DNA of 64,000 nucleotides from Escherichia coli. Lineage in GTDB: Bacteria; Pseudomonadota; Gammaproteobacteria; Enterobacterales; Enterobacteriaceae. Shown in pieces: positions 23,830-38,616 of this stretch (the first letter of the stretch is position 1; every line of letters begins with the position of its first letter). The position numbers and the translations under genes were made by a program. The stretch is taken from the NCBI RefSeq assembly GCF_003018235.1, contig NZ_CP027437.1; one strand, written 5' to 3'. Below the pieces are notes generated by a model. It saw nothing but the letters and a program-made list of their open reading frames with translations, ran no database searches and was not told the origin of the DNA.

Positions 23830-24399
23830 GTGAGCCAATTCATTCCCGTCGAATTACACCATGCCAGCCGTCTGTTAAATCATGGCCCAACAGTCATGAT
23901 CACCAGTTTCGATGAGCAATCCCAGCGGCGTAACATTATGGCTGCAGCCTGGTCGATGCCGGTGGAGTTTAAACCTCCACGCGTCGCGATTGTGGTAGAT
24001 AAGTCGACATGGACCAGGGAGTTGATTGAGCGTAACGGTAAATTTGGCATCGTTATCCCAGGCGTTGCAGCGACTAACTGGACGTGGGCAGTGGGAAGTG
24101 TATCTGGGCGTGAAGAGGATAAATTTAATTGCTATGGCATTCCGGTGGTGAAAGGTCCGGTGCTTGGTTTGCCACTTGTTGAAGAGAAATGTCTGGCGTG
24201 GATGGAGTGCCGATTGCTACCAGCGACTTCCGCGCAAGAGAAATACGACACGCTGTTTGGCGAAGTGGTATCAGCAGCGGCAGACGCACGGGTATTTGTC
24301 GAAGGCCGCTGGCAGTTTGATGATGATAAGCTCAATACGTTGCATCATTTAGGCGCTGGCACGTTTGTTACCAGCGGCAAGCGAGTCACCGCTGGCTAA
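23830..24399 (+). CDS. yddH: Flavin reductase-like domain protein (189 aa), GTG start
   Basis: GTG at 23830; flavin reductase-like sequence. Confidence 0.85.
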   Translation: MSQFIPVELHHASRLLNHGPTVMITSFDEQSQRRNIMAAAWSMPVEFKPPRVAIVVDKSTWTRELIERNGKFGIVIPGVAATNWTWAVGSVSGREEDKFNCYGIPVVKGPVLGLPLVEEKCLAWMECRLLPATSAQEKYDTLFGEVVSAAADARVFVEGRWQFDDDKLNTLHHLGAGTFVTSGKRVTAG

Positions 24400-24465
24400 A
24401 GAATCATATGCAGCAACGAAGTTGCGTAAGCAATGTTTCAATATGAGTTAAAAGCATATTTTATT

Positions 24466-25029
24466 TCACGATTGCATATTTTTAGTGAAGATTAATTTAT
24501 CCTCACCAACATCATAGTAATTGCGTATTATAGCTTCATTGATAAAGCCCTGTTTTGTATAAAATGCGCGGGTGGCACTAAAATCGACATAGCTGGAGGT
24601 CTCTACTAAAAGTAGTCTTGCGCAGGGAAAGGAGAACGCACTAATGACATGAATCGCTCCCCTGCGGCGACTCTTGTCATAAGAATGCCGGAGCGTTTTT
24701 CCATCAATTGCAATAACGTCTTTATCATCTGAAGAATGGCAGTCACGCATCCAGTTAATAAAGCACTCGTGAAATTTTGCAGGACTGATACAGGATACAA
24801 CTCTGGCAATGGTATCGTGAACAGAAATACCATTTTCAAAATCACCATATTGCTTCAAAAAATCGAGATGTGTTTCCCCAAAATCCTCTATATCTTCCCA
24901 GCCTTCTGCACCAGAAACAACGGCACAAATAGTCAACAGTAGAATATCAGACAATTTATATTCCACTTTCCAGGCTTGTCTGTAATCGGGGATAATAGAA
25001 ATATGTTCCATCAATTTTTTAAGTTCCAT
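24466..25029 (-). pseudogene. Truncated H-repeat (ISAs1-family) transposase N-terminus (~137 codons, 24619-25029) fused in frame to an unrelated ~50-codon 3' remnant
   Basis: [50 protein letters not shown]... matches H-rpt proteins up to ...AIHVISAFS, then diverges to ...[15 protein letters not shown]... (GNAT-like C-terminus). Confidence 0.75.
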
Positions 25030-25236
25030 TTTGTTCTCCTTAATTATGTAAGGAGTATTTGATCATGTATACGCAATAAAAAACAGCTTCAGGTAATGAG
25101 GAATATCTCAATTTTTAAACATAAAATGCGAATTATTTAGTACAAAAAATCAGCGTTACGTAATCTTTCCCTGATTAAACAGGTGGTTAAAGGAATGAAG
25201 GTGGGGATATCCGGCGTATTGAAAGAAGCATAAAAA

Positions 25237-25270
25237 TGAAAGCCGGGAAGTTCTAATTTTCTTCCCGGCT
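25237..25270 (-). terminator. Rho-independent terminator downstream of the orphan immunity gene
   Basis: aaagccgggaag ... cttcccggcttt with flanking T-run on the minus strand. Confidence 0.65.
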
Positions 25271-25274
25271 TTCA

Positions 25275-25559
25275 TTAGACTTCTTCTATTTCATATTTTA
25301 TAGACAATTCATGAAAGGCAGTAAATACCAGTGAAAATAATTTATCTCTATCACTTCCATTTAAATTATTTACAATGAAAAAACCATCCTCATGATCTTC
25401 TATTGAAAAATCAATCCAGTTTGAATAACTAGATGGAATCCAAAGTGAACCATCAGTATTAATCCGAGAGGATGGTTGATTTTCTTTTATTCTCTCGACA
25501 ATAAAAGAAAGTAAATTATCTACTTTATCATCAACATGTATAATATATTCAACACTCAT
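25275..25559 (-). CDS. Putative immunity protein for the orphan Rhs toxin tip (94 aa)
   Basis: Small AT-rich ORF 12 nt downstream of the orphan rhs-CT; no recognisable domain. Confidence 0.55.
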   Translation of the reverse strand: MSVEYIIHVDDKVDNLLSFIVERIKENQPSSRINTDGSLWIPSSYSNWIDFSIEDHEDGFFIVNNLNGSDRDKLFSLVFTAFHELSIKYEIEEV

Positions 25560-25571
25560 TAATTTCTTGCC

Positions 25572-26024
25572 TTATGCGCCGCACCCATGGGCTCGCCCTC
25601 GTTTTGTAGGATAATCATTTGGATTCCTGATCCCTATGTGTGTTTCATTCGGATTAGTACTCGGAATGCCTCTGTCATTCAGAGGTACCTCACCGGGATC
25701 ATATTTATGCACATGTGCGTTAGCCCCAGACTTAGGTAATGGATCACCGTTTTTCATCGTCATACTTTGATTTCCATAGGGATCGACACGAACTTTAGAG
25801 CCATCAGCGTGACTCCATGTCTGATTCCCGGTACTTGTTTGTTTATCCAAATTGAATCCATTATCAGTAAGAATAGAACCTATTGCCCCTGGGGATCTTC
25901 CTTTTAATTGAGGCAAATCAGAGGCGGCACTTAATCCAAGAGGATCTATCCATCCAAGAGGGTTAGGCGCATAAGCATACAGGTTTAACCCACCCGCCAG
26001 CCCTATCGGATCAGTACACAGATA
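25572..26024 (-). other. Orphan rhs C-terminal cassette: core-end remnant (DPIGLAGGLNLYAYAPNPLGWIDPLGL) plus a distinct ~115-aa toxin tip; no canonical start codon
   Basis: Frame is open from the stop at 26027-26025; 25931-26010 is nucleotide-homologous to 27001-27080 of the main rhs; track ORF start is a non-ATG (TTG) codon. Confidence 0.75.
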
Positions 26025-26138
26025 TTACCACGTCTCGCAATCATAGTACCGGAACCGATGATAGTACAGTCCCGCGTCATGCTATTAAAGACAATGTAGT
26101 GCGATGATATGTGTCATCCCTCAATTATTTTTATAAAA

Positions 26139-26645
26139 TCATATATTATCTTCCTGTTGCAGGAATTGATTATAAAAAGATAGTTTTTTATCTAAAAATA
26201 AAAAGTGATACCCAACCGACTTTAGATCATTATTTATGACAGATAATAACTTATTCCATTCATAGATATATTTATATTTATTTACAAGCAATACACTTTT
26301 ACTAGAATTTAAATTAAAAAGTTCATCCGTGTTTATGGAGATCCATTTTGAAAAAATTTCAATATTCTTTTTATCTATTTTAACATCTAATAATACCGTA
26401 AAGGATTCACATAAGAAATTGCATTCAAAGTTAAACCCGGAGATGATACCATCAAGCATTTTGATAATATCATCAATGATTTCACTCAGGCTATTAAGTG
26501 TTAGTGAAATATGAACGCCATTCCAGTTTATATAAAAACACCCGGATGATATGGGATATGCGGAAAATATAGCCTCCGATAAATTAATATCCTCTTCATC
26601 CATGAGGCCTTTTTGATAAGTATCATCAATTTCTATTTTGAACAT
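26139..26645 (-). CDS. Putative Rhs immunity protein (168 aa from ATG at 26645)
   Basis: ATG lies 1 nt after the rhs TAA stop (TAATATG); AT-rich; position typical of rhsI. Confidence 0.65.
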   Translation of the reverse strand: MFKIEIDDTYQKGLMDEEDINLSEAIFSAYPISSGCFYINWNGVHISLTLNSLSEIIDDIIKMLDGIISGFNFECNFLCESFTVLLDVKIDKKNIEIFSKWISINTDELFNLNSSKSVLLVNKYKYIYEWNKLLSVINNDLKSVGYHFLFLDKKLSFYNQFLQQEDNI

Positions 26646-26646
26646 A

Positions 26647-29600
26647 TTACTTACCCTTTTCATAAATGGGGCCTGCTGTCGATGAATCAATTGGGAAACC
26701 GTGAAAAGTCCCATCCCCATTATTTCTGACCCGAATTTTATCCGGTTTAATAGGTACTCCATTTCCTCCGGGAATATAAACTTCACTCTTACTATTTTGA
26801 TTTATAGGAAAATCTTTCATCTCATCCGGTTTTAGCGTGGCAGCTTGTTCTCCAGCATATTTCAGATCATCCTTGCTTCTCCAAACTCCATGAGGATTCT
26901 TTTCTTTATCTGCAATTGCTTGAGCTGCGTTAGGATGTAGTTTCATCCCATGCCTTTTCCCTCTTGAGTAACCATTCTCGGCTTTTAAGCAGGTGGGATT
27001 TAATCCAAGAGGATCGATCCAACTTAAAGGATTCGGCGCATAAGCGTACAGGTTTAACCCGCCTCTCAGCCCTATCGGGTCCGTTACCATGAACCGCCCG
27101 ACATCCGGATCATAGTACCTGTGCAGATTGTAGTGCAGCCCCGTTTCCCTGTCGAGGTACTGTCCCTGGTAGCGCAGGTTCTGCTCCACCCCGCCGTGGT
27201 CCTTCTCCTGTATCGTGTTACCCCAGACCTGATACCCCGTCTCCCACACGATTTTCCCGTCACTGTCCGTCATCTCTTCCGGCGCGCCGTTCACATCCGT
27301 GTGAAAATACAGTATCCGGTTCAGGCCCTCTTTACCCACCTTATCCACCCGCGCCAGCGGTTCATAACTCCCCGGGTCGCTGTAGATATACAGGCTGCTT
27401 ATTCCCTCCGGCCTGCTCTCCTGCGCCAGCCGCATTCCGTCCCATAAAAATGTCGTCCGGTTGTACGGTTTACCGTCAGGGCTGATGTGCTGTTTTTCCG
27501 TCCGCCTCCCCAGCGCATCGTACACATACCGGTACGTTCCCCGCGCTGTCGTCACTTCCACCATCCGGTGTTCCGCATCATAACGGTAACTCTGCGTGCC
27601 GCTCCGGCCCTCCTTTTCCACCGCACGGCCAAATTCGTCGTAACGGTAGTGCACACCACGGTAAGACATCAGCCGGTTGAACGGCACCACGCTGTTTTCT
27701 GCCGTGGCCCTTTCCCCCGCGCGCCGCGCCAGCAGGTTTCCCGCCGCGTCGTACTCCCAGCTCGCCAGATACCCCTCATCCTCCGAGCGGCACGCCGTGA
27801 TGCGCCCCGTGGGGTCGTAGAAGTAATCCGTTTCCCCCCGCCGGCTGTGCCGCGTCTTCAGCAGTTCATCCTCGCCGCTGTAGCTGTACTGCCGGTCCGT
27901 GAACGTCTCCGGTACCACCCCGCGCATCCCGCTGTATGTCTCCCTGCGCTTCAGCCGCCCGGCGGGGTCATAAAGCTGCCGCGTGCTCAGTCGCCCCTGA
28001 CTTCTGAGCACTTCCCGGTGCAGGGCGTCACGTGTGAACTCGCTGATGACCTCCCGGTCCAGATTTATCTGCTGGAGATGGCCGCTGCCGTAGTACAGAT
28101 GACGCTGCGTTCTGCCGTCCGGAAAGGTGGTGGCTGTCCGGTTGCTGAGTTCATCGTACTGATGGGTCAGGACGCCCTGCGCCGTCTCCTCAGTCAGCAT
28201 CCGCCCCAGTCTGTCGTAACTGAAGCGGATAATCTCCGGTGCGTCCATTTCCCCGGCATCCGACCGTCGGCGGCGGATTTCCAGTAGCTGGTCTGCCGCA
28301 TCATGGACGTATTCCGTACGGCTATCGGCTGTCTCCTTTGCCGTGAGCCGGCCCGCCGCATCACGTGCCAGCCGGTGGCGGATTTCACCGCCCCGGTCCC
28401 CTGTGAACACCACTTCCGTGACCGCGTTCAGCACGTTGTAACGGTACGTCTGGCGGCAGCCGTCCGGATTTATCTGCTCCGCCAGACGGTCCAGCACATC
28501 ATGGCGGAACCGGTAGTTTTCTCCGTTCTCGTTCGTGAGCGTGACCAGACGCCCGTAAGCATCGTACCCGAACGCCGTCCTGCGCCCCGTCGCGTCTGTC
28601 CGGCTGCGCACCCGGCCCTGCCCGTCCCGCTGCCAGCGCGTTATCCTCCCCATCGGGCTGGTGTACTTCACGAGCCTGCCCGCCGCGTCCGACTGGTAAT
28701 TCACCGTGCGGCCGTCCGCCAGTATCACCTCCGTCAGGTGGCCGCTGTCGTCATACCCGTAGCGCGTGCTGTGGCTCTGCGCGTCTGTCATCCGTATCAG
28801 CCGCGTGCGTTCGTCGTAGAACCAGGCCGTCTGCGAGCCGGAACAGTCCGTGTGCCGCATGAGCTGTCCGTCTTCGTTCCACTGAAGGTATTTATTCCCC
28901 CCGCGCGCATCCGTTATCTGCACCACCTGACCGTGGCGGTCATACTGATACCGGGTGTTCTGCTGCAGCGGGTCGGTCACCGCAAGAAGATTGCCGCGTT
29001 CATCGTACTCACAGCACCAGCTGTTCCCCGCCGCGTCCACCTCCGTTTCCGGCTGGTGCCACACCGGGTGCCACTGTGTCTGTGCCACCCGCCCCAGCGG
29101 GTCGTGCGTCTCCGTGATATGCCCCTGCCGGTCATACACATAGCGCCATTTGCCGCCCTGCGCATCGGTCATTCCCAGTAACAGCCGTTCTTCGTCGCTC
29201 CAGCGGAACGTCGTCACCTGCCCGGCTTCGTCCTGGTACGCCGTCACCTGGTTCTGCGCGTCCCACTGATGATAACGCGTGCGCCCCAGCCCGTCCGTCA
29301 CGCACAGCCTGCGTGCCGCGAGGCTCCACGCCAGCCGGTACTGTTCACCGCTGTCCGTGTGGTGCCCCGTCACCCGCCACGCTGCGTCATCCGGGCCTTC
29401 ATACCAGCCCCACTGGTAATAATACCCTTCGCCGCCCGGCTGGCGGTGCAGGGTCATGCAGTGGTTTTCGTCGTAAGCAAACTCGCGCAGCAGGTGCCCC
29501 GTGCTGTCGTACACGCCGTTCAGGTCGCCGGCCTCGTCATAGCGGTAACGACGCAGCAGTAAAGGAGCCGTCTCAGGGAAATGCTGATAAATCTGTGTCA

Positions 29601-31311
29601 CCCGCCGGGGATGCGCCGCCAGTTCATAATGCAGACGGATGCACGGACGCTGCTGTTCACCGCTGATTTGCGTGATGCGTCCCCGGTCGTCGTAGTACAG
29701 ATTCAGACAGTTGCTGTTGCGGTCGCCCAGCATTTTCAGCCGCTGGCGCTGCGGGTGACGCGGGTCGGCCTCAAACAGAAAAAACTGCCCGTCATCGCTG
29801 CTGATAAGCCAGTGCCCCTGCTCACCCCGCCGTACTGCCAGTCCTTCGCCGGGGCTGTAAAACCCGCTCCCCGGCAGCACGGCCTCCATATCCAGACGTC
29901 GTCCCATGCCCGACACAAAGGTCATACAGTTTTCGTCAGCAGTACCCGGCGTGCGCTCGAGGCTGACTTCATACATCACGCTCCAGCCCTGCCCGAACAT
30001 CCCTTCCGTGCGGTCGTCACGACTGCTGTACACGCGCTGCCAGTCCAGCGGAAAGTGGCCCGGCAGACTGAAATCGAAGTCATCGTCATCCGCCAGATAT
30101 TTGGCTCCGGTGGCGGCATTGACCGGATGCGGAAGGGCACTGATGGCCTTCTGCGTCATCACCCCCATCCCGACACTGGCAGCAAAACAGGCGATTTTAG
30201 AAAGCATTTTGCCCGGGCGAAGAAACATCAGCGCCACGGTTGCCACCAGGGTTATCTGCGACCTGCCGCTTCTGATATCCCTGACCACCAGTAACGGACC
30301 GCCAATGCGGACATCCGGTGACACAAACGCCCCGTTCCCCGGCTCATTCACCACCCTGGCCTCGCAGGTACAGCGTGCCCCGCTGCGCGCCGCCGGCTGG
30401 CTGTTGATACGCACATCCCGCGCGCCTTCCGCGATATATTCCGCTGCGGGCGGTTCATCATCGCCTTTGAACAGATTACTGATGCTGCCAATAACCGCAT
30501 TCACTCCCTGAAAGGCGGTTTCCAGCATACCGCCCGGACTCAGCAGGTTAAGGGCCGTTCCCAGAGGGTCATCCAGAAAGGCGGCTTTTTTTTGTGCGAG
30601 AAACTGCGTCAGTGAGGAGGGATGTTTATGGCAGTCGATTTTATCGTCAGGGGTCGGGGTGGAGCCCGGGGCCGCACTGGCCACGGTGGGCTGCCATAGT
30701 TCCGACACAAAATGTGTCACGCCATCCACCATTTCAGAACGCCCTTCTTCCGTACTGAGCTGGTCATGCAGCGCCCGGGACATCAGCACAGGCCCTGTCA
30801 CCGGGTTAACCGCCAGGGCTATGGCCCCCGCCATTTCCAGATATTCCCCGGCCACATCCCGGAACGTTCTGGCGTCCTCCTGACGCTGCGCTTCTTCCTG
30901 TTCCGCCTTCGCCTGTGCCTCCTGCGCCTCAATGTCCTGCCGCGATGCCGCAGTCGCCGCGGCCCGCGCGGCAGGTTTGCTGTTGATCCATGTGTCGCCA
31001 GAGCCGGTGAGGATGTAACCTTCAATCTGAGGCGGGAAAAGCCAGTTCGCCAGTTGCTCACTTTCCCTACTGATTCGGTCATTCCAGCCCTGATACGACA
31101 TAAATACCGCTGTTGCTATACCGATCGCTAAAATGGTTGAGCAGCCCAGCGTTGCCACTTCAACTCCGCCCAGCGCCGCCATGGTTCCGACAACCAGAAC
31201 ATCCACCAGGGCTGTGGCGGCAACCTCTACAACTGCCCCCAGCACATCTGCCATAAACGACGTATGCAGCAGGGCATCACCCTGCCTTGCCGCCCAGAAT
31301 GCCTCTTCCAT
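26647..31311 (-). CDS. Rhs-family polymorphic toxin / T6SS effector (1554 aa): prePAAR motif, N-terminal TM region, PAAR region, YD-repeat shell, PxxxxDPxGL, ~110-aa C-terminal toxin tip of unassigned family
   Basis: N-terminal AARQGDALLH motif; hydrophobic segment ADVLGAVVEVAATALVDVLVVGTMAALGG...; two PAAR tetrapeptides; numerous YD repeats; DPIGLRGGLNLYAYAPNPLSWIDPLGL before the tip. Confidence 0.9.
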   Translation of the reverse strand: MEEAFWAARQGDALLHTSFMADVLGAVVEVAATALVDVLVVGTMAALGGVEVATLGCSTILAIGIATAVFMSYQGWNDRISRESEQLANWLFPPQIEGYILTGSGDTWINSKPAARAAATAASRQDIEAQEAQAKAEQEEAQRQEDARTFRDVAGEYLEMAGAIALAVNPVTGPVLMSRALHDQLSTEEGRSEMVDGVTHFVSELWQPTVASAAPGSTPTPDDKIDCHKHPSSLTQFLAQKKAAFLDDPLGTALNLLSPGGMLETAFQGVNAVIGSISNLFKGDDEPPAAEYIAEGARDVRINSQPAARSGARCTCEARVVNEPGNGAFVSPDVRIGGPLLVVRDIRSGRSQITLVATVALMFLRPGKMLSKIACFAASVGMGVMTQKAISALPHPVNAATGAKYLADDDDFDFSLPGHFPLDWQRVYSSRDDRTEGMFGQGWSVMYEVSLERTPGTADENCMTFVSGMGRRLDMEAVLPGSGFYSPGEGLAVRRGEQGHWLISSDDGQFFLFEADPRHPQRQRLKMLGDRNSNCLNLYYDDRGRITQISGEQQRPCIRLHYELAAHPRRVTQIYQHFPETAPLLLRRYRYDEAGDLNGVYDSTGHLLREFAYDENHCMTLHRQPGGEGYYYQWGWYEGPDDAAWRVTGHHTDSGEQYRLAWSLAARRLCVTDGLGRTRYHQWDAQNQVTAYQDEAGQVTTFRWSDEERLLLGMTDAQGGKWRYVYDRQGHITETHDPLGRVAQTQWHPVWHQPETEVDAAGNSWCCEYDERGNLLAVTDPLQQNTRYQYDRHGQVVQITDARGGNKYLQWNEDGQLMRHTDCSGSQTAWFYDERTRLIRMTDAQSHSTRYGYDDSGHLTEVILADGRTVNYQSDAAGRLVKYTSPMGRITRWQRDGQGRVRSRTDATGRRTAFGYDAYGRLVTLTNENGENYRFRHDVLDRLAEQINPDGCRQTYRYNVLNAVTEVVFTGDRGGEIRHRLARDAAGRLTAKETADSRTEYVHDAADQLLEIRRRRSDAGEMDAPEIIRFSYDRLGRMLTEETAQGVLTHQYDELSNRTATTFPDGRTQRHLYYGSGHLQQINLDREVISEFTRDALHREVLRSQGRLSTRQLYDPAGRLKRRETYSGMRGVVPETFTDRQYSYSGEDELLKTRHSRRGETDYFYDPTGRITACRSEDEGYLASWEYDAAGNLLARRAGERATAENSVVPFNRLMSYRGVHYRYDEFGRAVEKEGRSGTQSYRYDAEHRMVEVTTARGTYRYVYDALGRRTEKQHISPDGKPYNRTTFLWDGMRLAQESRPEGISSLYIYSDPGSYEPLARVDKVGKEGLNRILYFHTDVNGAPEEMTDSDGKIVWETGYQVWGNTIQEKDHGGVEQNLRYQGQYLDRETGLHYNLHRYYDPDVGRFMVTDPIGLRGGLNLYAYAPNPLSWIDPLGLNPTCLKAENGYSRGKRHGMKLHPNAAQAIADKEKNPHGVWRSKDDLKYAGEQAATLKPDEMKDFPINQNSKSEVYIPGGNGVPIKPDKIRVRNNGDGTFHGFPIDSSTAGPIYEKGK

Positions 31312-31329
31312 GTCCCGTTCCCTGTGTGA

Positions 31330-31782
31330 TTAATTCGTCCCGGCTTCCTGCCGCATCCTGAAGCGCAGATTCTTTTTAATTTCAGCCCAGCGCGTCATAT
31401 CTGCCGGGGTCAGCGGTGTGGTTCTGGCGTAGGTGAAGGCCATCATGACCCGCTCACCCGGCAATACAAATGCCACCTGACACTGGTACACCTGCTCGTT
31501 ACCCCGGAGAAACTGGCTCTGTATTTCCAGTCCTTCTTCACCGTCATTAATCCCCACCCGTGTTACCTGAACGGGCGTGTAGTGAAGATCCTTTACCTGT
31601 TTCTCCAGTTTTTTCATTTGCTGTTCAATCTGGGAGGCTAATTCGTCTCCTTCCTGCATCTGGCCCCGGCTGATAATGAGTGCAGCGTCGGGATCGCTGA
31701 GGCGCAGCATATTAATAGTACTGTCCTGAATAATATTCCCGGAAAAAGTTACAACAGTTTCATTGAGATAATACTCCGTCAT
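31330..31782 (-). CDS. DUF1795/Eag-family chaperone for the prePAAR effector TM domain (150 aa)
   Basis: Size and position between vgrG and the prePAAR rhs match Eag chaperones; family assignment is by context and recall, not by search. Confidence 0.65.
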   Translation of the reverse strand: MTEYYLNETVVTFSGNIIQDSTINMLRLSDPDAALIISRGQMQEGDELASQIEQQMKKLEKQVKDLHYTPVQVTRVGINDGEEGLEIQSQFLRGNEQVYQCQVAFVLPGERVMMAFTYARTTPLTPADMTRWAEIKKNLRFRMRQEAGTN

Positions 31783-33763
31783 AATGATATGAGTCCTTTT
31801 AAATTAATAAATTATTTAATGATGGTTTTTGTTTATTTTTTAGTCATGAAGGCGACATCTATCGCCAATTGAAGGGCTGTTTTTTCCGATGTTCCAGGCG
31901 GAAGTATATCTGCCGCCCTGTTATTCATATTTAAATCAAGCTGACCTGATTGTGTATTTATCTTTCCATTTTCTGTTGCAGTAATATTAAAATTCTTACA
32001 GGTTATATTAAATATTCCGTCACTGGTCATTTGCAGGATAGTGTTCCCACAACTAAGAATTATGGAATCTCCCGCAGCAAGGCGTAAATTCTGTACGGCC
32101 TGAATCGTTTTATTTTGTCCGGCAAGGGAGGTATCATCCATCTGAACTGTAAGAGAACGTTCCTCACCAATTATCGCTGTTTCTGTTTTATCAATGACTT
32201 TAAGGCGATTATTGCCCACCCAGTGGCTTTCATTATTATTTACTTCAATCCGCTGATCTTTTTCGGCATGTAGCCAGACCTCTTCACCGCCAGGTTTATC
32301 CTCAAAACGTAGTGCGTTGGCATTGGTTGGGCCGCCGCCGATAGTGTGACTGTAAAATCCGCTTTGCGTCGCTGCGCCCGGTAGTCCCCACGGTGGCATG
32401 GTGTCCTGGTTGTAGGTACGCCCAACAATTATCGGTAAATCCGGATCACCGTTTTTGAAATCCACCAGTACTTCCTGACCAATGCGCGGGATCTGAATGC
32501 CACCGAATCCTTTACCCGCCCACGGATAACTGACACGGACCCAGCAGGAACTATTTTCGTCATTCTTACCGTAACGATCCCAGCCAAACTGAACTTTCAC
32601 CCGGCCATATTTATCTGTCCAGATTTCCTGCCCTGCCGGGCCGGTGACGATGGCGCTCTGCGGGCCTTTAGTGTGGGGTTTGCTCAGGGTTCGTTGTGGG
32701 CGGTAAACTTCGCTGGTGGGATGCAGTTCAAAGCTGGTTGAGTAAGAGAAATGCTGCTCCTGGCCGCTGTGTTGCGCATTGTCCTGTATAAATAGCGTGG
32801 TCTGTACCAGCAGATATTCCCGGTTCACTTCGGCTGTCGGATAGTTTTCCAGGATGAAGGTAAAACCTGTCATCAGGGTACGAATATTGCCGCTGCCCTG
32901 TACCCGACTACCTGGGCTACGCTGTTCTTCCATGCGAATGCGTGTCAGCATTTCACCTTCACTCTTTGTGAAGTAATCTCCCGGCCATTCGTAGTGCTCA
33001 TATTCAGCAAGGCCGGTTTCACGCGGATTAGCCACGGTGCTCTTCAGCAGTGAACGCGGCTTCATAAAGTCGAAATCATTCAGCACCCACTGTCCACTGC
33101 GCAGACTTTCATTTGCTGTGATGGTATGGATAAACTCCTTGTCCAGTTTCAGCCCTTTCTGGTAATAACACACCAGCGGCGAATCTGCGCATGCCTTGTG
33201 GACATTAATGGCATCAGCCAGCACTAACGTGTGACTGTTCTCGCTGTGCTCAAACCACCAGTAGATACCCCACTCCTGCATCAGGCGCTGAACAAAATCG
33301 AAATCTGTTTCACCGTACTGCACCTGCCAGGCGCGAGTCGGATAATTTTCCACCAGTCGTTTTTCCACTGGCCAGGGGTACTCATCCAGTACCTCATCCA
33401 GGATCTCCACCACGTTTTTATTCTGAAACGCTTTGTAGTCACTAGTGTGGGTCAGTATTTTTAACCACGGTTCGAGCCGCAGTTCATACACCACCGAACG
33501 TCCTTGATGACCAGCCACGCGTGCCGCCGTCACCAGCCCGCTGATATAACGTTTTCCGCCGCCATCCAATTCGATATTGACGCACAGATCTTTGCCCACC
33601 ATCGGTTTGAGCTGCAGGTTGGCTGCGGGGGAAACATAGCCCAGGTTCAGGATGTCAGGAGTTTTTAATTTAATAGAATAAGTAAATAGTTCCCCTACTG
33701 TTTCTGTACCCCCTAAGCTTGCAAACAGTAACATGATCCTACCCACGTAATGTGGACACGGCC

Positions 33764-34618
33764 CTAAGCGAGATTATGGTTTTCAAATTGTTCCGGGCTG
33801 AGACCGCCACAGGCACTGTGACGACGCCAGCGATTGTAATCACTCTCGATATAATTAAACACCGTTGCCCGCATTATTTCCCGGCTGCTAAAGCGTTCCC
33901 CGTGGATACATTCCACCTTCAGCGAATGAAAGAAGCTTTCCACACAGGCATTGTCATAACAGTAGCCTTTCGCACTCATACTGCCACGCAGGTTGTGTCG
34001 CTTCAGCATTGCCTGATAATCCCCTGAACAGTATTGACCACCACGGTCCGTATGAACAATGACGTTTTCCGGGCGTCTTCTCCGCCACAACGCCATTTGC
34101 AGTGCATCACAGGCCAGTTGTGCTGTCATTCGCGGTGACATCGACCAGCCAATGACGGCGCGTGACCACAGGTCGATGACTACTGCGAGATACAACCAGC
34201 CCTCATCGGTACGCAAGTACGTGATGTCACCCGCCCACTTCTGGTTCGGGCCACTGGCGCTGAAGTCCTGCTCCAGCAGATTCTCCAATACGGGCAGGCC
34301 ATGTGCACGGTAGCTGACCGGGCTGAACTTCCGGCTGGCTTTCGCCCGCAGCCCCTGACGACGCAGGCTGGCGGCAATGGTTTTAATATTGAACTCCGGC
34401 AGTTCGTCAGCAAGGCGGGGAGCACCGTATCGCTGCTTTGCCTCAAAGAATGCCTTATGGACAGCGGCATCGCAGGTGAGCCGAAACTGTTGGCGCAGGC
34501 TCATCTGGTGACGACGCCTGAGCCAGACATACCAGCCGCTGCGGGCAACCCGAAGTACACGACACATCGCTTTGATGCTGAACTCTGCCCGATGATTTTC
34601 GATGAAGACATACTTCAT
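33764..34618 (-). CDS. insF: IS3 transposase OrfB (DDE integrase core; made by -1 frameshift from OrfA)
   Basis: rve-domain sequence ...[34 protein letters not shown]...; overlaps orfA end. Confidence 0.9.
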
Positions 34619-34914
34619 TTCAGGCGCTTCGCGAAGTATGTCGCGGCCTTTTGGAGGATGGCCAGTTCCTCAGCCTGCTCCGCCAGTTGTCGTTTAAGGC
34701 GGACATTTTCAGCGGCCAGTTCGCTTTCGCGCTCTGACGAACTCATTTGTTGCTGCTGTTTACTGCGCCAGGCATAAAGCTGAGATTCATACAGGCTGAG
34801 TTCACGGGCTGCGGCGGCCACACCGATGCGTTCAGCGAGTTTCAGGGCTTCGTTACGAAATTCAGGCGTATGTTGTTTACGGGGCTTCTTGCTGATTGAT
34901 ACTGGTTTTGTCAT
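34615..34914 (-). CDS. insE: IS3 transposase OrfA (99 aa)
   Basis: [52 protein letters not shown]... Confidence 0.9.
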
Positions 34915-35295
34915 GAGTCACCTCTGGTTGAGAGTTTACTCACTTAGTCCTGTGTCCACTATTGGTGGGTAAGATCAACATTCCATCAGGAACTGCGCTG
35001 CCGCTCAAAGTCACGTTATGTGTACCCGATCCAGTTAGTGCGCCGGATGGATAATCTGTAGCTGCAAAACTCATAATTAATCCTTTTAACTAGAAATGGA
35101 TAAGTGCTAATAAGAAATCTTACAGAGAATAAAATATGCAATATATTCGTAGCTGGCATAAAACATCTCAATACTTATGCGTGCTACTGAAGATACTATC
35201 AACCATATATGCCTTGAAGAATGCACCGTCATGTTAACCTGGTGGAAACATTCACCTAAAGTACATTAATAAAACTAATAAAATTATTTAATTTG

Positions 35296-35652
35296 TTATT
35301 TGATATGATTATCATCAAGTCTTAAAATACGTTCTCCGGTTCTAATTATGTTAAAACCATAGTATTCTTTTTTACTTTCGGAAGAGAGCATATATTTCCC
35401 GATATACATAACATCTGAAGATAGCTCACTTATATCAATACATACGGGTTCGAACTGACCTGTCACTCTTTTCAACTTTATTGCATTGCCATATTTACCT
35501 TCATATAAAACATAATTTGAAATAATATTCCCATCGTCTGGTTTTGAACAAATCTGTCCGTCTTGCAAATATACACTACCGGGTAACAATGGGCGAACAT
35601 AATCACCAACAGTGCATCCCGACAAAAAGAAAAACAAAAAGAATCTCTTCAT
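35296..35652 (-). CDS. Predicted outer-membrane lipoprotein (118 aa); candidate immunity protein for the upstream HExxH protein
   Basis: Signal peptide plus lipobox MKRFFLFFFLSG-C; Thr at +2; ATGA overlap with the upstream gene. Confidence 0.7.
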   Translation of the reverse strand: MKRFFLFFFLSGCTVGDYVRPLLPGSVYLQDGQICSKPDDGNIISNYVLYEGKYGNAIKLKRVTGQFEPVCIDISELSSDVMYIGKYMLSSESKKEYYGFNIIRTGERILRLDDNHIK

Positions 35653-36218
35653 ATGACACCCGCAGGAAATAAATTAAGCACCTTTTTGTATTTTTCCGAT
35701 AGAGTGTTCACTGATTCAGTTGTATCACCTACATAGTTAACATTTGCCAAATCAGCCACCAGTCCATAGTTAATTAATAGCCAATAATCAGCAACTATAG
35801 ATGCTTGTTGTTCCATGGAATAAGAAGAAATTGACTGTAAATTAAGATCGTAATGATAATTTGCCGCCCAAGAAAATAAACCACGCAACTTAACTGCATA
35901 CCCTTTCTGATATTGCCAAACATGCATCATTTCATGAATAAACAAGTGAGAAGCACCTGCTACTGTTTCACGATCACCAGGCATTGCTTGCGATGAATAA
36001 TCTGAACTATAAACAGCATCAGGATAATACATTTCCCCGTTTGGGGTCATCGCTGTTCTTTCCCCTTGACCAGGCAAATATTTTTCATTGTGGATCCATA
36101 CCTTGCTATAATCAATTGTATTCTCAAAAATCGATCTGGCCAATGTTAATTCACCAGATGTCATTCTCCTTAATGACATATCCTTTCCCCTGGAAATAAT
36201 ATCTTTCAGATAAAACAC
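35649..36218 (-). CDS. DUF4157-like zincin metallopeptidase-fold protein with HExxH motif (189 aa); candidate antibacterial effector
   Basis: Motifs IDYSKVWIH ... GEMYYP ... SHLFIHEMMHVWQYQ; no signal peptide; translationally coupled to the lipoprotein ORF. Confidence 0.65.
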   Translation of the reverse strand: MFYLKDIISRGKDMSLRRMTSGELTLARSIFENTIDYSKVWIHNEKYLPGQGERTAMTPNGEMYYPDAVYSSDYSSQAMPGDRETVAGASHLFIHEMMHVWQYQKGYAVKLRGLFSWAANYHYDLNLQSISSYSMEQQASIVADYWLLINYGLVADLANVNYVGDTTESVNTLSEKYKKVLNLFPAGVI

Positions 36219-37116
36219 AAACGCCCTTTGATGTTCAATATTCCCACTTTATACAGTATTGATGACATCATATTCATAGAAAATAAAATCAAAGCAAGTT
36301 ATCAACGTTTCCCGTTATGATTTCTTAACATTAATTCTCAGCATTTTTATTAATCTATCTTCAATATCAATAACCGATGCAAATGATTACGCAGCTAACA
36401 TAATTCTCATCAATTGATTAATGTCTGTAAACGCTACCGCCCCACCCTGATATCTTAATCTGCACATAGCAATCTTAACGTTATGCCCCATACATTAGTA
36501 ATGTAAATTAAGAATTCGGAATATATCAAATTCACTTCATAAATTAATATCGGGAATGATATACACATTAATTATAATGAAGTAATGTTTTAAGAGTTGT
36601 AATGACCATGGAACAGGATTAATTCCAGAAGCTCCTGTTGGGCAATAGCGCGTTTATCATCCTACATGCCTCTTACATTTTTTAGCCTTTTCTTTAACGT
36701 CAGCAATTGGCTCATTTAATCAGCAATTGTATTGGTATTTGGCGTATTACCCCTGAAACCCGTCATGTGCTAGCACCTCACTATTCAATGAGCCAACCAC
36801 GCCAGTGTCCACTGCAACCACTGGCGTTCAGAGCGACGAACGAGTGGCGCAAGAGTAAGACTGCCGTCGGGCATCATCAAACCAATAGTGGTTGTTTCCG
36901 TCAAAATTTCATCAGGTTGCTATTTTGTTGCCGGCCGCCTTTATCCCCACATATTTATAGCGGGATTATTTTGCATCGTTACACGATAAAAGGTAGGATT
37001 CTGCGCCGACAGTTATACCCATAAAGAATAATGGTGAATCTTGTCATCGCCAGGATGAATAAACATTGTTCATGGCAACTTATATGACTTTTTCATTAAA
37101 GCAATCAGGGAGAGCA

Positions 37117-38616
37117 ATGAGTAAACACGACACCGACACTTCAGATCAACACGCCGCGAAACGCCGCTGGCTTAATGCCCACGAAGAGGGGTATCACAAA
37201 GCGATGGGCAATCGCCAGGTACAGATGATCGCCATTGGCGGCGCGATTGGTACGGGTTTGTTTTTAGGCGCGGGAGCCCGACTGCAAATGGCGGGGCCAG
37301 CACTGGCACTGGTCTATTTGATCTGCGGCCTGTTTTCATTTTTTATTCTGCGTGCATTGGGTGAGCTGGTGTTACACCGCCCTTCCAGTGGCAGTTTTGT
37401 CTCTTATGCCCGTGAGTTTTTAGGAGAGAAAGCCGCTTACGTTGCAGGCTGGATGTACTTCATCAACTGGGCGATGACGGGGATTGTCGATATTACCGCC
37501 GTCGCTCTGTATATGCATTACTGGGGTGCGTTTGGCGGCGTGCCGCAGTGGGTCTTTGCGCTCGCTGCGCTGACCATCGTTGGCACCATGAATATGATCG
37601 GTGTGAAATGGTTTGCCGAGATGGAGTTCTGGTTTGCGCTTATTAAAGTGCTCGCCATTGTTACCTTTTTGGTCGTGGGTACAGTGTTCCTCGGTAGTGG
37701 TCAGCCGCTGGATGGCAACACCACTGGTTTTCATTTAATTACCGATAACGGCGGCTTCTTCCCCCACGGTTTGCTGCCTGCGCTGGTGTTGATTCAGGGC
37801 GTAGTGTTTGCTTTTGCCTCCATTGAAATGGTGGGTACAGCTGCCGGAGAATGTAAAGATCCGCAGACCATGGTGCCTAAAGCCATTAACAGTGTGATTT
37901 GGCGTATTGGCCTGTTTTACGTCGGCTCCGTGGTGTTGCTGGTTATGTTATTGCCGTGGAGCGCATATCAGGCGGGGCAAAGTCCGTTCGTGACGTTTTT
38001 CTCTAAACTGGGTGTGCCATATATCGGCAGCATTATGAACATTGTGGTGCTGACCGCTGCCCTCTCCAGCCTGAACTCAGGTCTGTACTGCACCGGACGT
38101 ATTCTGCGCTCAATGGCGATGGGCGGTTCCGCACCGAGTTTTATGGCGAAAATGAGTCGTCAGCATGTGCCGTATGCCGGGATTCTGGCGACACTGGTTG
38201 TGTATGTCGTCGGCGTATTCCTCAACTATCTGGTGCCGTCGCGCGTATTTGAGATTGTGTTGAACTTCGCGTCGCTGGGAATCATCGCCTCATGGGCGTT
38301 TATCATCGTGTGCCAGATGCGCCTGCGTAAAGCGATTAAAGAAGGCAAAGCCGCGGATGTCAGTTTTAAACTGCCTGGCGCGCCCTTCACTTCCTGGCTG
38401 ACATTACTGTTTTTGCTGAGCGTCCTGGTGCTGATGGCGTTCGATTACCCGAACGGGACTTATACCATCGCGGCGCTGCCGATTATCGGTATTCTGCTGG
38501 TTATAGGCTGGTTTGGTGTGCGCAAACGCGTTGCTGAAATTCACAGCACTGCGCCAGTCGTCGAGGAAGATGAAGAACAACAGGAAATTGTGTTTAAGCC
38601 TGAAACGGCGAGTTAA
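37117..38616 (+). CDS. ansP: L-asparagine permease (APC family, 499 aa)
   Basis: ATG at 37117 after GGGAGAG; MSKHDTDTSDQHAAKRRWLNAHEEGYHKAMGNRQVQMIAIGGAIGTGLF... Confidence 0.92.
   Translation: MSKHDTDTSDQHAAKRRWLNAHEEGYHKAMGNRQVQMIAIGGAIGTGLFLGAGARLQMAGPALALVYLICGLFSFFILRALGELVLHRPSSGSFVSYAREFLGEKAAYVAGWMYFINWAMTGIVDITAVALYMHYWGAFGGVPQWVFALAALTIVGTMNMIGVKWFAEMEFWFALIKVLAIVTFLVVGTVFLGSGQPLDGNTTGFHLITDNGGFFPHGLLPALVLIQGVVFAFASIEMVGTAAGECKDPQTMVPKAINSVIWRIGLFYVGSVVLLVMLLPWSAYQAGQSPFVTFFSKLGVPYIGSIMNIVVLTAALSSLNSGLYCTGRILRSMAMGGSAPSFMAKMSRQHVPYAGILATLVVYVVGVFLNYLVPSRVFEIVLNFASLGIIASWAFIIVCQMRLRKAIKEGKAADVSFKLPGAPFTSWLTLLFLLSVLVLMAFDYPNGTYTIAALPIIGILLVIGWFGVRKRVAEIHSTAPVVEEDEEQQEIVFKPETAS

Follow-up and report, generated by a model that had tools for sequence, protein, structure and literature searches.

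A divergent Escherichia coli pair of the VgrG2b-type metallopeptidase effector-immunity family in an orphan vgrG-rhs island

Introduction

Among type VI secretion system (T6SS) metallopeptidase effectors, the C-terminal domain of VgrG2b from Pseudomonas aeruginosa has had its structure solved (6H56) and its zinc binding shown (Wood et al., 2019; PMC6899460). The domain is toxic in the periplasm only, and the product of the downstream gene, PA0261, is its immunity protein, which binds the toxin (PMC6899460). Its effects include changed cell morphology and division and the depletion of several lipoproteins from membranes, the substrate not being defined (PMC6899460). The present analysis concerns a related pair of overlapping genes, which encode a putative metallopeptidase (hereafter the toxin) and a small lipoprotein, at positions 35,296 to 36,218 of a 64,000-nucleotide stretch of Escherichia coli DNA (hereafter the window; contig NZ_CP027437.1 of assembly GCF_003018235.1). 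Considering the homology, the catalytic residues, the predicted fold, the immunity-family membership, the gene order and the linkage to vgrG that are documented below, this pair very probably constitutes a T6SS effector-immunity module of the VgrG2b C-terminal metallopeptidase/PA0261 family.

In 2019, a putative cargo effector accompanied by lipoprotein immunity proteins was also reported in "many members of the Enterobacteriaceae", C-terminal fusion to a VgrG being one of the architectures described, and the lipoprotein SARI_02726 was found enriched in the outer membrane (Wood et al., PMC6899460). The corresponding pair from Salmonella enterica subsp. arizonae was characterized in 2026: pelB-SARI_02727 is toxic in E. 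coli and SARI_02726 rescues partly, and in competition an S. arizonae mutant deleted for the pair loses fitness against the wild type and none against a toxin mutant (PMC12992299).

An earlier note on the window, made from its sequence, had presented the pair as a candidate undescribed one. This cannot be maintained, as the family, its stand-alone forms in Enterobacteriaceae and the lipoprotein type of immunity were published in 2019 (PMC6899460), and the tests that were proposed, i.e., periplasmic toxicity with a pelB fusion, rescue by the lipoprotein and competition, have already been published for the S. arizonae homologue (PMC12992299). As for the suggested peptidoglycan target, not even VgrG2b has an established one, and current data point to a perturbation of cell division and of lipoproteins. 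The core of the proposal, a periplasm-acting T6SS metallopeptidase with an outer-membrane lipoprotein as immunity protein, gains from a strong homology to both VgrG2b/PA0261 and SARI_02727/SARI_02726. Regarding the E. coli proteins themselves, no paper was found in the literature and the RefSeq accessions gave nothing. The pair is an uncharacterized and somewhat divergent E. coli member of a known effector-immunity family, not a new kind of system, and it is distinguished by its location in an orphan vgrG-rhs island, by a short lipoprotein that scores below the curated threshold and by a loop before the catalytic helix that is longer by about eight residues.

The overlapping gene pair

Both genes lie on the minus strand. 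The open reading frame (ORF) of the toxin extends in its longest form from a GTG start at 36218 to a TGA stop at 35649 (189 aa); an ATG start at 36179 gives the 176-aa form (35649..36179; MSLRR...) used by RefSeq (WP_000058705.1) and by all close homologues. Its stop overlaps the start of the 118-aa lipoprotein gene (35296..35652) in an ATGA tetranucleotide at 35649..35652. Within the toxin, the zinc-binding and catalytic motif HEMMH (H82, E83, and H86) is encoded at 35922..35936, and the predicted third zinc ligand, E123 in an MEQQ motif, at 35811..35813. The lipoprotein begins with MKRFFLFFFLSGC-T, i.e., a lipobox LSGC (35614..35625, with Cys13) followed by a Thr at position +2, a residue that does not retain lipoproteins in the inner membrane. 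The two ORFs lie on the minus strand where the earlier note had placed them, the ATGA overlap, the HExxH motif and the lipobox with its Thr are present, and the note's statement that the toxin has no signal peptide holds, a hydrophobic segment being absent from the N-terminus.

With a G+C content of 33-37%, the pair is AT-rich in comparison with the window (49%) and the core of the neighboring Rhs gene (60-65%), which suggests a mobile cassette. These are real genes and not chance ORFs, since the pair is carried by 230 of the 5426 complete E. coli genomes, there is a solved structure that the toxin matches, and in 50 of 56 related loci the toxin gene is followed by a lipobox ORF.

The toxin belongs to the VgrG2b C-terminal family

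In a phmmer search of the sequences of the Protein Data Bank (PDB), the VgrG2b effector domain (6H56_A) is the one clear match to the toxin (E 1.9e-20, 76.6 bits, query residues 4-138). In the alignment to 6H56, HEMMHVWQ of the toxin pairs with HEMTHVWQ of VgrG2b and SMEQQ with NIEQQ, H82, E83, H86, and E123 corresponding to H935, E936, H939, and E983 (residue naming from PMC6899460). All four residues are invariant in an alignment of 22 homologues. An AlphaFold2 model of the toxin built on this alignment has a predicted local distance difference test (pLDDT) score of 90.6 and a predicted template modeling (pTM) score of 0.89. When it is compared with the PDB by Foldseek, the sole matches at E<=0.001 are the two chains of 6h56 (A/B; E 1.1e-8, probability 1.00, TM score 0.63), with 31% identity across 161 structurally aligned columns; the matches below 6h56 are insignificant and mostly M1 aminopeptidases. 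Sequence, motif, modeled fold, downstream partner and linkage to T6SS genes thus all place the toxin in the VgrG2b C-terminal metallopeptidase family.

Among 1.84 billion representative proteins, a profile of the family retrieved 1455 relatives (cluster representatives) at E<=1e-10. In these the domain either stands alone in proteins of about 165-250 aa or is found C-terminally in longer ones (about 300-450 aa or about 1000-1280 aa); toxin homologues are abundant in Enterobacterales.

The toxin has no match in Pfam, even at E<=10, and none in NCBIfam, and PADLOC returned no match for either the toxin or the lipoprotein, hence no tie to a known anti-phage system. The expectation, expressed in the earlier note, of a DUF4157/zincin assignment was not borne out: PF13699 (eCIS_core, formerly DUF4157) does not match the toxin at E<=10. 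Relatives of the toxin are sometimes annotated as DUF4157 (PMC6899460), and the likeness to PF13699 is short, centered on HExxH and at the level of the zincin superfamily rather than of family membership. It could still be asked whether the toxin is a zincin of the DUF4157/eCIS-core type that is not secreted, being cytoplasmic or self-acting, and that has an unrelated lipoprotein as neighbor, as PF13699 is faintly detected in 13 of the 22 relatives (E<=0.1; best E 4.9e-3; none of the 22 at E<=0.001), DUF6782 is faint in 6 of them, and homologues exist in a family in which a T6SS is rare, the Sphingomonadaceae (PMC6899460). Facing the strong and specific match to the VgrG2b effector domain in both sequence and modeled fold, the missing PF13699 and PADLOC matches, and a lipoprotein partner from the cognate immunity family whose conservation extends across genera, the likelihood of such a reading is close to negligible.

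A lipoprotein from a divergent branch of the immunity family

The NCBIfam model NF045617, "putative T6SS immunity periplasmic lipoprotein", matches the E. coli lipoprotein over residues 5-96 with 32 bits (E 1.1e-7). A word-indexed search with this protein returned nothing beyond E. coli alleles of 84-97% identity, so that its kinship to proteins of other genera was established via sequences derived from synteny. For this purpose, 80 loci encoding toxin homologues were collected, with one genome per species, and the ORF just downstream of each toxin gene was taken. In 50 of 56 loci (L003-L059, nearly all from Enterobacterales), a lipobox ORF of about 113-162 aa lies directly downstream of the toxin gene, and the overlap of the two genes measures 4 nt in 21 of these 50 cases and 7 nt in another 11.

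A hidden Markov model (HMM) of the 50 downstream lipoproteins gives the E. coli lipoprotein 35 bits (E 1.3e-9) and none of 2000 shuffled sequences more than 7.2 bits. In a profile-profile comparison by hhalign, the E. coli alleles align with 24 family members headed by SARI_02726 over residues 5-116 and 108 columns (97.6%, E 4.6e-12). Three cysteines of the lipoprotein, namely C13 of the lipobox, C35, and C71, fall on the three invariant cysteine columns of the family. The stability of PA0261 depends on DsbA (PMC6899460), which fits the predicted C35-C71 disulfide. DUF7480 is carried by 13 of the 24 family members from other genera and is missing from the E. coli protein, which points to a divergent short branch. 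As judged from these profiles and conserved positions, the E. coli lipoprotein is a divergent and short branch of the PA0261/SARI_02726 immunity family. An AlphaFold2 model of a fused toxin-linker-lipoprotein chain, built on a paired alignment, gave a pTM of 0.73, a value obtained without interface metrics; it is compatible with a defined complex and is not conclusive. For the Salmonella pair, an interface pTM (ipTM) of 0.87 has been reported.

The nature of this partner also bears on the target of the toxin. VgrG2b was first described as promoting internalization by epithelial cells, in a microtubule-dependent invasion (PMC4453011), and the E. coli pair is found in pathogenic strains from humans, pigs, and poultry, from which an anti-eukaryotic or dual-kingdom effector with an incidental lipoprotein could be hypothesized. 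However, antibacterial periplasmic toxins have as their signature a dedicated lipoprotein in the periplasm with translational coupling and conserved cysteines, the stand-alone protein consists of the metallopeptidase domain only, and the closest characterized homologue is antibacterial (PMC12992299), all of which makes an action on eukaryotic cells highly unlikely as the role of the pair.

Comparison with related pairs

The closest characterized pair is that of S. arizonae. SARI_02727 is 44% identical to the E. coli toxin (E 3e-48), both proteins stand alone with about 180 aa, and the HExxH motif and the downstream Glu are kept in both. In both organisms the lipoprotein gene overlaps the stop of the toxin gene, and the pair lies immediately upstream of a vgrG gene on the same strand. 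The surroundings differ: in Salmonella pathogenicity island 20 (SPI-20), the order is tssL, ompA-like, clpV, SARI_02727, SARI_02726, and vgrG, so that the pair is flanked by clpV and vgrG in a T6SS core cluster, whereas the E. coli pair lies in an orphan vgrG-eagR-rhs island beside ansP. Compared with SARI_02727, the E. coli toxin lacks a Lys/Asp-rich N-terminal tail, and its loop before the HExxH helix is about eight residues longer. The E. coli lipoprotein counts 118 aa against 154 aa for SARI_02726, the two are related at the profile level only (pairwise BLASTP E 3.7), and the DUF7480 match of SARI_02726 has no equivalent in E. coli.

With respect to P. aeruginosa, the VgrG2b C-terminal domain is homologous to the E. 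coli toxin and has the same H-E-H plus E zinc site, and both PA0261 and the E. coli lipoprotein are small, encoded downstream and periplasm-facing, with conserved cysteines. While the E. coli domain is free-standing, that of VgrG2b is joined to the VgrG spike via DUF2345 and TTR modules, and while PA0261 is soluble in the periplasm and carries a type I signal peptide (PMC6899460), the E. coli partner is a lipoprotein.

The closest relative outside E. coli is an uncharacterized pair of Citrobacter farmeri (locus L083, toxin P0014 with a 126-aa lipoprotein), the toxin being 68% and the orthologous lipoprotein 49% identical to those of E. coli. Both species share a downstream vgrG-DcrB/EagR-Rhs module, the Rhs protein of C. 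farmeri carrying a PAAR domain. Unlike the E. coli pair, that of C. farmeri belongs to a main T6SS cluster, in which tssM and tagF are found upstream. The toxin gene of C. farmeri directly follows a duplicated 5' fragment of vgrG (L083 7000-7980; 326 aa), whose identity to the N-terminal part of the complete vgrG located 1.1 kb downstream is 77%, and E. coli has no such remnant upstream of its pair. The fragment looks like the scar of a cassette exchange by recombination between vgrG genes. Further upstream in C. farmeri (L083 4470-6975), another two cassettes of two genes each (233+128 aa and 244+122 aa) encode larger proteins with HEVGH or HELGH motifs and smaller proteins which resemble each other and have hydrophobic N-termini, with no Pfam matches on record; these may be further metallopeptidase effector-immunity pairs.

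The longer loop before HExxH, a lipoprotein that is missed by curated models, and the recurrent place upstream of a vgrG with EagR-Rhs cargo could be taken together as marks of a functionally distinct branch of the VgrG2b type in E. coli and Citrobacter, with a substrate or immunity specificity of its own and with one spike loading two effectors without an adaptor. This is quite improbable. If true, one spike with two effectors and no adaptor would be a way of loading so far undescribed in this family.

The vgrG-rhs island and its insertion sequence

In E. coli with an intact locus (e.g., strain HCP5S3_I2; the island of ETEC1738 is intact as well), the order is ansP on the opposite strand, a gap of about 0.9 kb, toxin, lipoprotein, 221 bp, vgrG (664 aa), a DcrB-related/EagR gene, rhs, and a small ORF. 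In the window, the same-strand position directly upstream of vgrG that was claimed in the earlier note is found, and the insertion sequence (IS) that it put between the pair and vgrG sits in fact within vgrG, after codon 32. By alignment to an intact locus (L002, vgrG of 664 aa), codons 1-32 lie at 34978..35074 and codons 33-664 at 31833..33733 (TIGR03361, E 5e-167), both on the minus strand. The intervening 1244 bp (33734..34977, minus strand) are an IS3-family element with NF033516 IS3 transposase, orfA (34615-34914) and orfB (33764-34618). It has inverted repeats at its termini, the ends being TGATCTTACCCAC and TGATCCTACCCAC, and 3 bp of the target (TGT) are duplicated at the junctions. A 637-aa ORF restarts at a GTG codon inside the IS end. 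As an IS3-family insertion at this vgrG site was seen in none of the 5426 complete E. coli genomes, the insertion is probably recent.

Downstream of vgrG on the same strand, a DcrB-related protein of the EagR type is encoded at 31330..31782, according to the RefSeq annotation of an identical locus and to a PF08786 match on the C. farmeri counterpart, followed by a 1554-aa Rhs toxin (26647..31311) with an RHS core, YD repeats and an Rhs-associated core. The DcrB-related/EagR gene belongs to the vgrG-rhs module and not to the metallopeptidase pair. Beyond the Rhs gene, positions 24000-27000 are AT-rich (35-38% G+C) and hold small minus-strand ORFs with no NCBIfam match, which are candidate Rhs immunity genes or orphan modules; a fragment of an ISAs1 transposase gene is found at 24466-25029.

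On the other side, the gap between the toxin gene and ansP (36180-37065) comprises about 0.9 kb of AT-rich (37.6% G+C) and apparently non-coding DNA, within which the left boundary of the island presumably falls. Neither a clpV nor a vgrG remnant was found upstream of the toxin (36180-37100), the only vgrG matches of that search being the known 5' fragment downstream of the pair. A promoter and terminator scan around the pair performed no better than on shuffled sequence, and no Rfam RNA family was detected at 24000-38000 of the window.

Linkage to vgrG raises the question of how the toxin would be loaded. Among the loci collected, a vgrG gene lies downstream on the same strand in 13 further stand-alone toxin loci, and the domain is fused to the end of VgrG in 4 loci. 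The toxin might instead be loaded into the Hcp tube, with its place beside vgrG resulting from cassette exchange by recombination at vgrG genes. Such a route would suit a single compact domain of about 20 kDa with no recognizable adaptor or MIX, PAAR or TTR module, as it would suit a neighboring VgrG already encoded with EagR and Rhs, a module carrying PAAR in C. farmeri; the duplicated vgrG 5' fragment at the C. farmeri cassette, a recombination scar, and the many pairs that are not beside any vgrG point the same way. Against this stand the covalent fusions to VgrG or PAAR in other lineages (PMC6899460), by which spike delivery is known to work for this domain, and the recurrence of the order pair-then-vgrG in E. 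coli, Citrobacter, Salmonella and the 13 other loci, so that loading into Hcp is unlikely, though an alternative to be taken seriously.

Distribution and alleles

The 230 E. coli genomes with the pair (about 4% of the 5426) carry it with 90-99.8% DNA identity and on the chromosome in every case. They include the enteropathogenic E. coli (EPEC) strain E2348/69 and the mouse commensal MP1; E. coli K-12 is devoid of the pair. In RefSeq, both proteins are named "hypothetical protein", or the toxin is mislabeled as "type IV secretion protein Rhs".

Not all alleles are complete. Of the E. coli toxin alleles (proteins P0009 and P0012), some have a deletion of 12 residues (YWLLINYGLVAD) directly behind the zinc-ligand helix, and others are cut to 135 aa, the latter form comprising 87 member sequences on 49 contigs; both kinds are likely inactive. 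In other genera, some genomes of Rosenbergiella and Serratia (L003, L011, and L013) hold two or three copies of the cassette, many of them, e.g., beside recO-pdxJ, with no vgrG within 6 kb.

Proposed mode of action

For zinc binding, periplasmic toxicity, neutralization by binding, dependence on the T6SS and outer-membrane location, the following scheme borrows from the characterized homologues. The 176-aa toxin would be a thermolysin-like gluzincin in which H82, H86, and E123 hold the zinc ion and E83 serves as the catalytic base. Made in the cytoplasm without a signal peptide, it would be harmless there and be exported as a T6SS cargo, acting only upon reaching the periplasm of a rival cell, where by analogy with VgrG2b it may disturb the envelope and division. 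The 118-aa partner is predicted to be a lipoprotein processed by the general secretory pathway and signal peptidase II (Sec/SPII), probably anchored in the outer membrane, stabilized by the C35-C71 disulfide and facing the periplasm, and it would bind and neutralize toxin arriving from sister cells. As the adjacent vgrG is split by the IS at codon 32, delivery via this VgrG spike has probably been lost in the present strain with the pair left intact, and the module may be silent as a weapon and still confer immunity.

Several observations weigh against the assignment of the pair to a working T6SS effector-immunity module. The lipoprotein scores below the curated cutoff of NF045617 (32 vs. 43 bits; SARI_02726 reaches 90.8 bits) and has no Pfam match at E<=10, thus none to DUF7480 (PF24295); once its signal peptide is removed, it matches the family HMM with only 17 bits (E 5e-4), which is still above all 2000 shuffles. 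In other genera, the majority of related loci lack a vgrG within 6 kb and are surrounded by housekeeping genes, so that a neighboring vgrG is no universal feature, and the vgrG of the window is itself split. In E2348/69 (L086, 7001-7883), the lipoprotein gene is frameshifted in a poly-T tract of the signal-peptide region, and the toxin bears W88G, HEMMHIGQ replacing the otherwise near-invariant HVWQ; this module is in decay.

These signs of erosion could be read in another way. In this strain and in many other E. coli the capacity for attack may have been lost, the lipoprotein being kept against VgrG2b-type metallopeptidases of relatives and the toxin being carried along or decaying. Besides the IS-split vgrG, the persistence of the pair next to vgrG and rhs pseudogenes in strains 2014C-3338 and E2348/69, the 135-aa and 12-residue-deleted toxin alleles and the many orphan pairs of other genera far from vgrG are what such a defensive or vestigial module would leave behind. 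It is nevertheless a rather unlikely explanation, since both ORFs of the window are intact with all catalytic residues present, since the frameshift of E2348/69 hits precisely the immunity gene, which is ill-suited to selection for immunity, and since delivery of the toxin could still be ensured by another VgrG or Hcp encoded at a different place in the genome. The effector-immunity module thus remains the preferred reading for the pair.

Significance

No new kind of system is revealed by this locus. Two genes which are "hypothetical" or mislabeled in RefSeq across 230 of 5426 genomes can now be named, and a putative periplasm-acting metallopeptidase, as recognized from its sequence, is added to the T6SS arsenal of E. 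coli at the ansP-side vgrG-rhs island. E. coli moreover offers a genetically tractable host for finding the substrate of this toxin family and the route by which its stand-alone forms are loaded.

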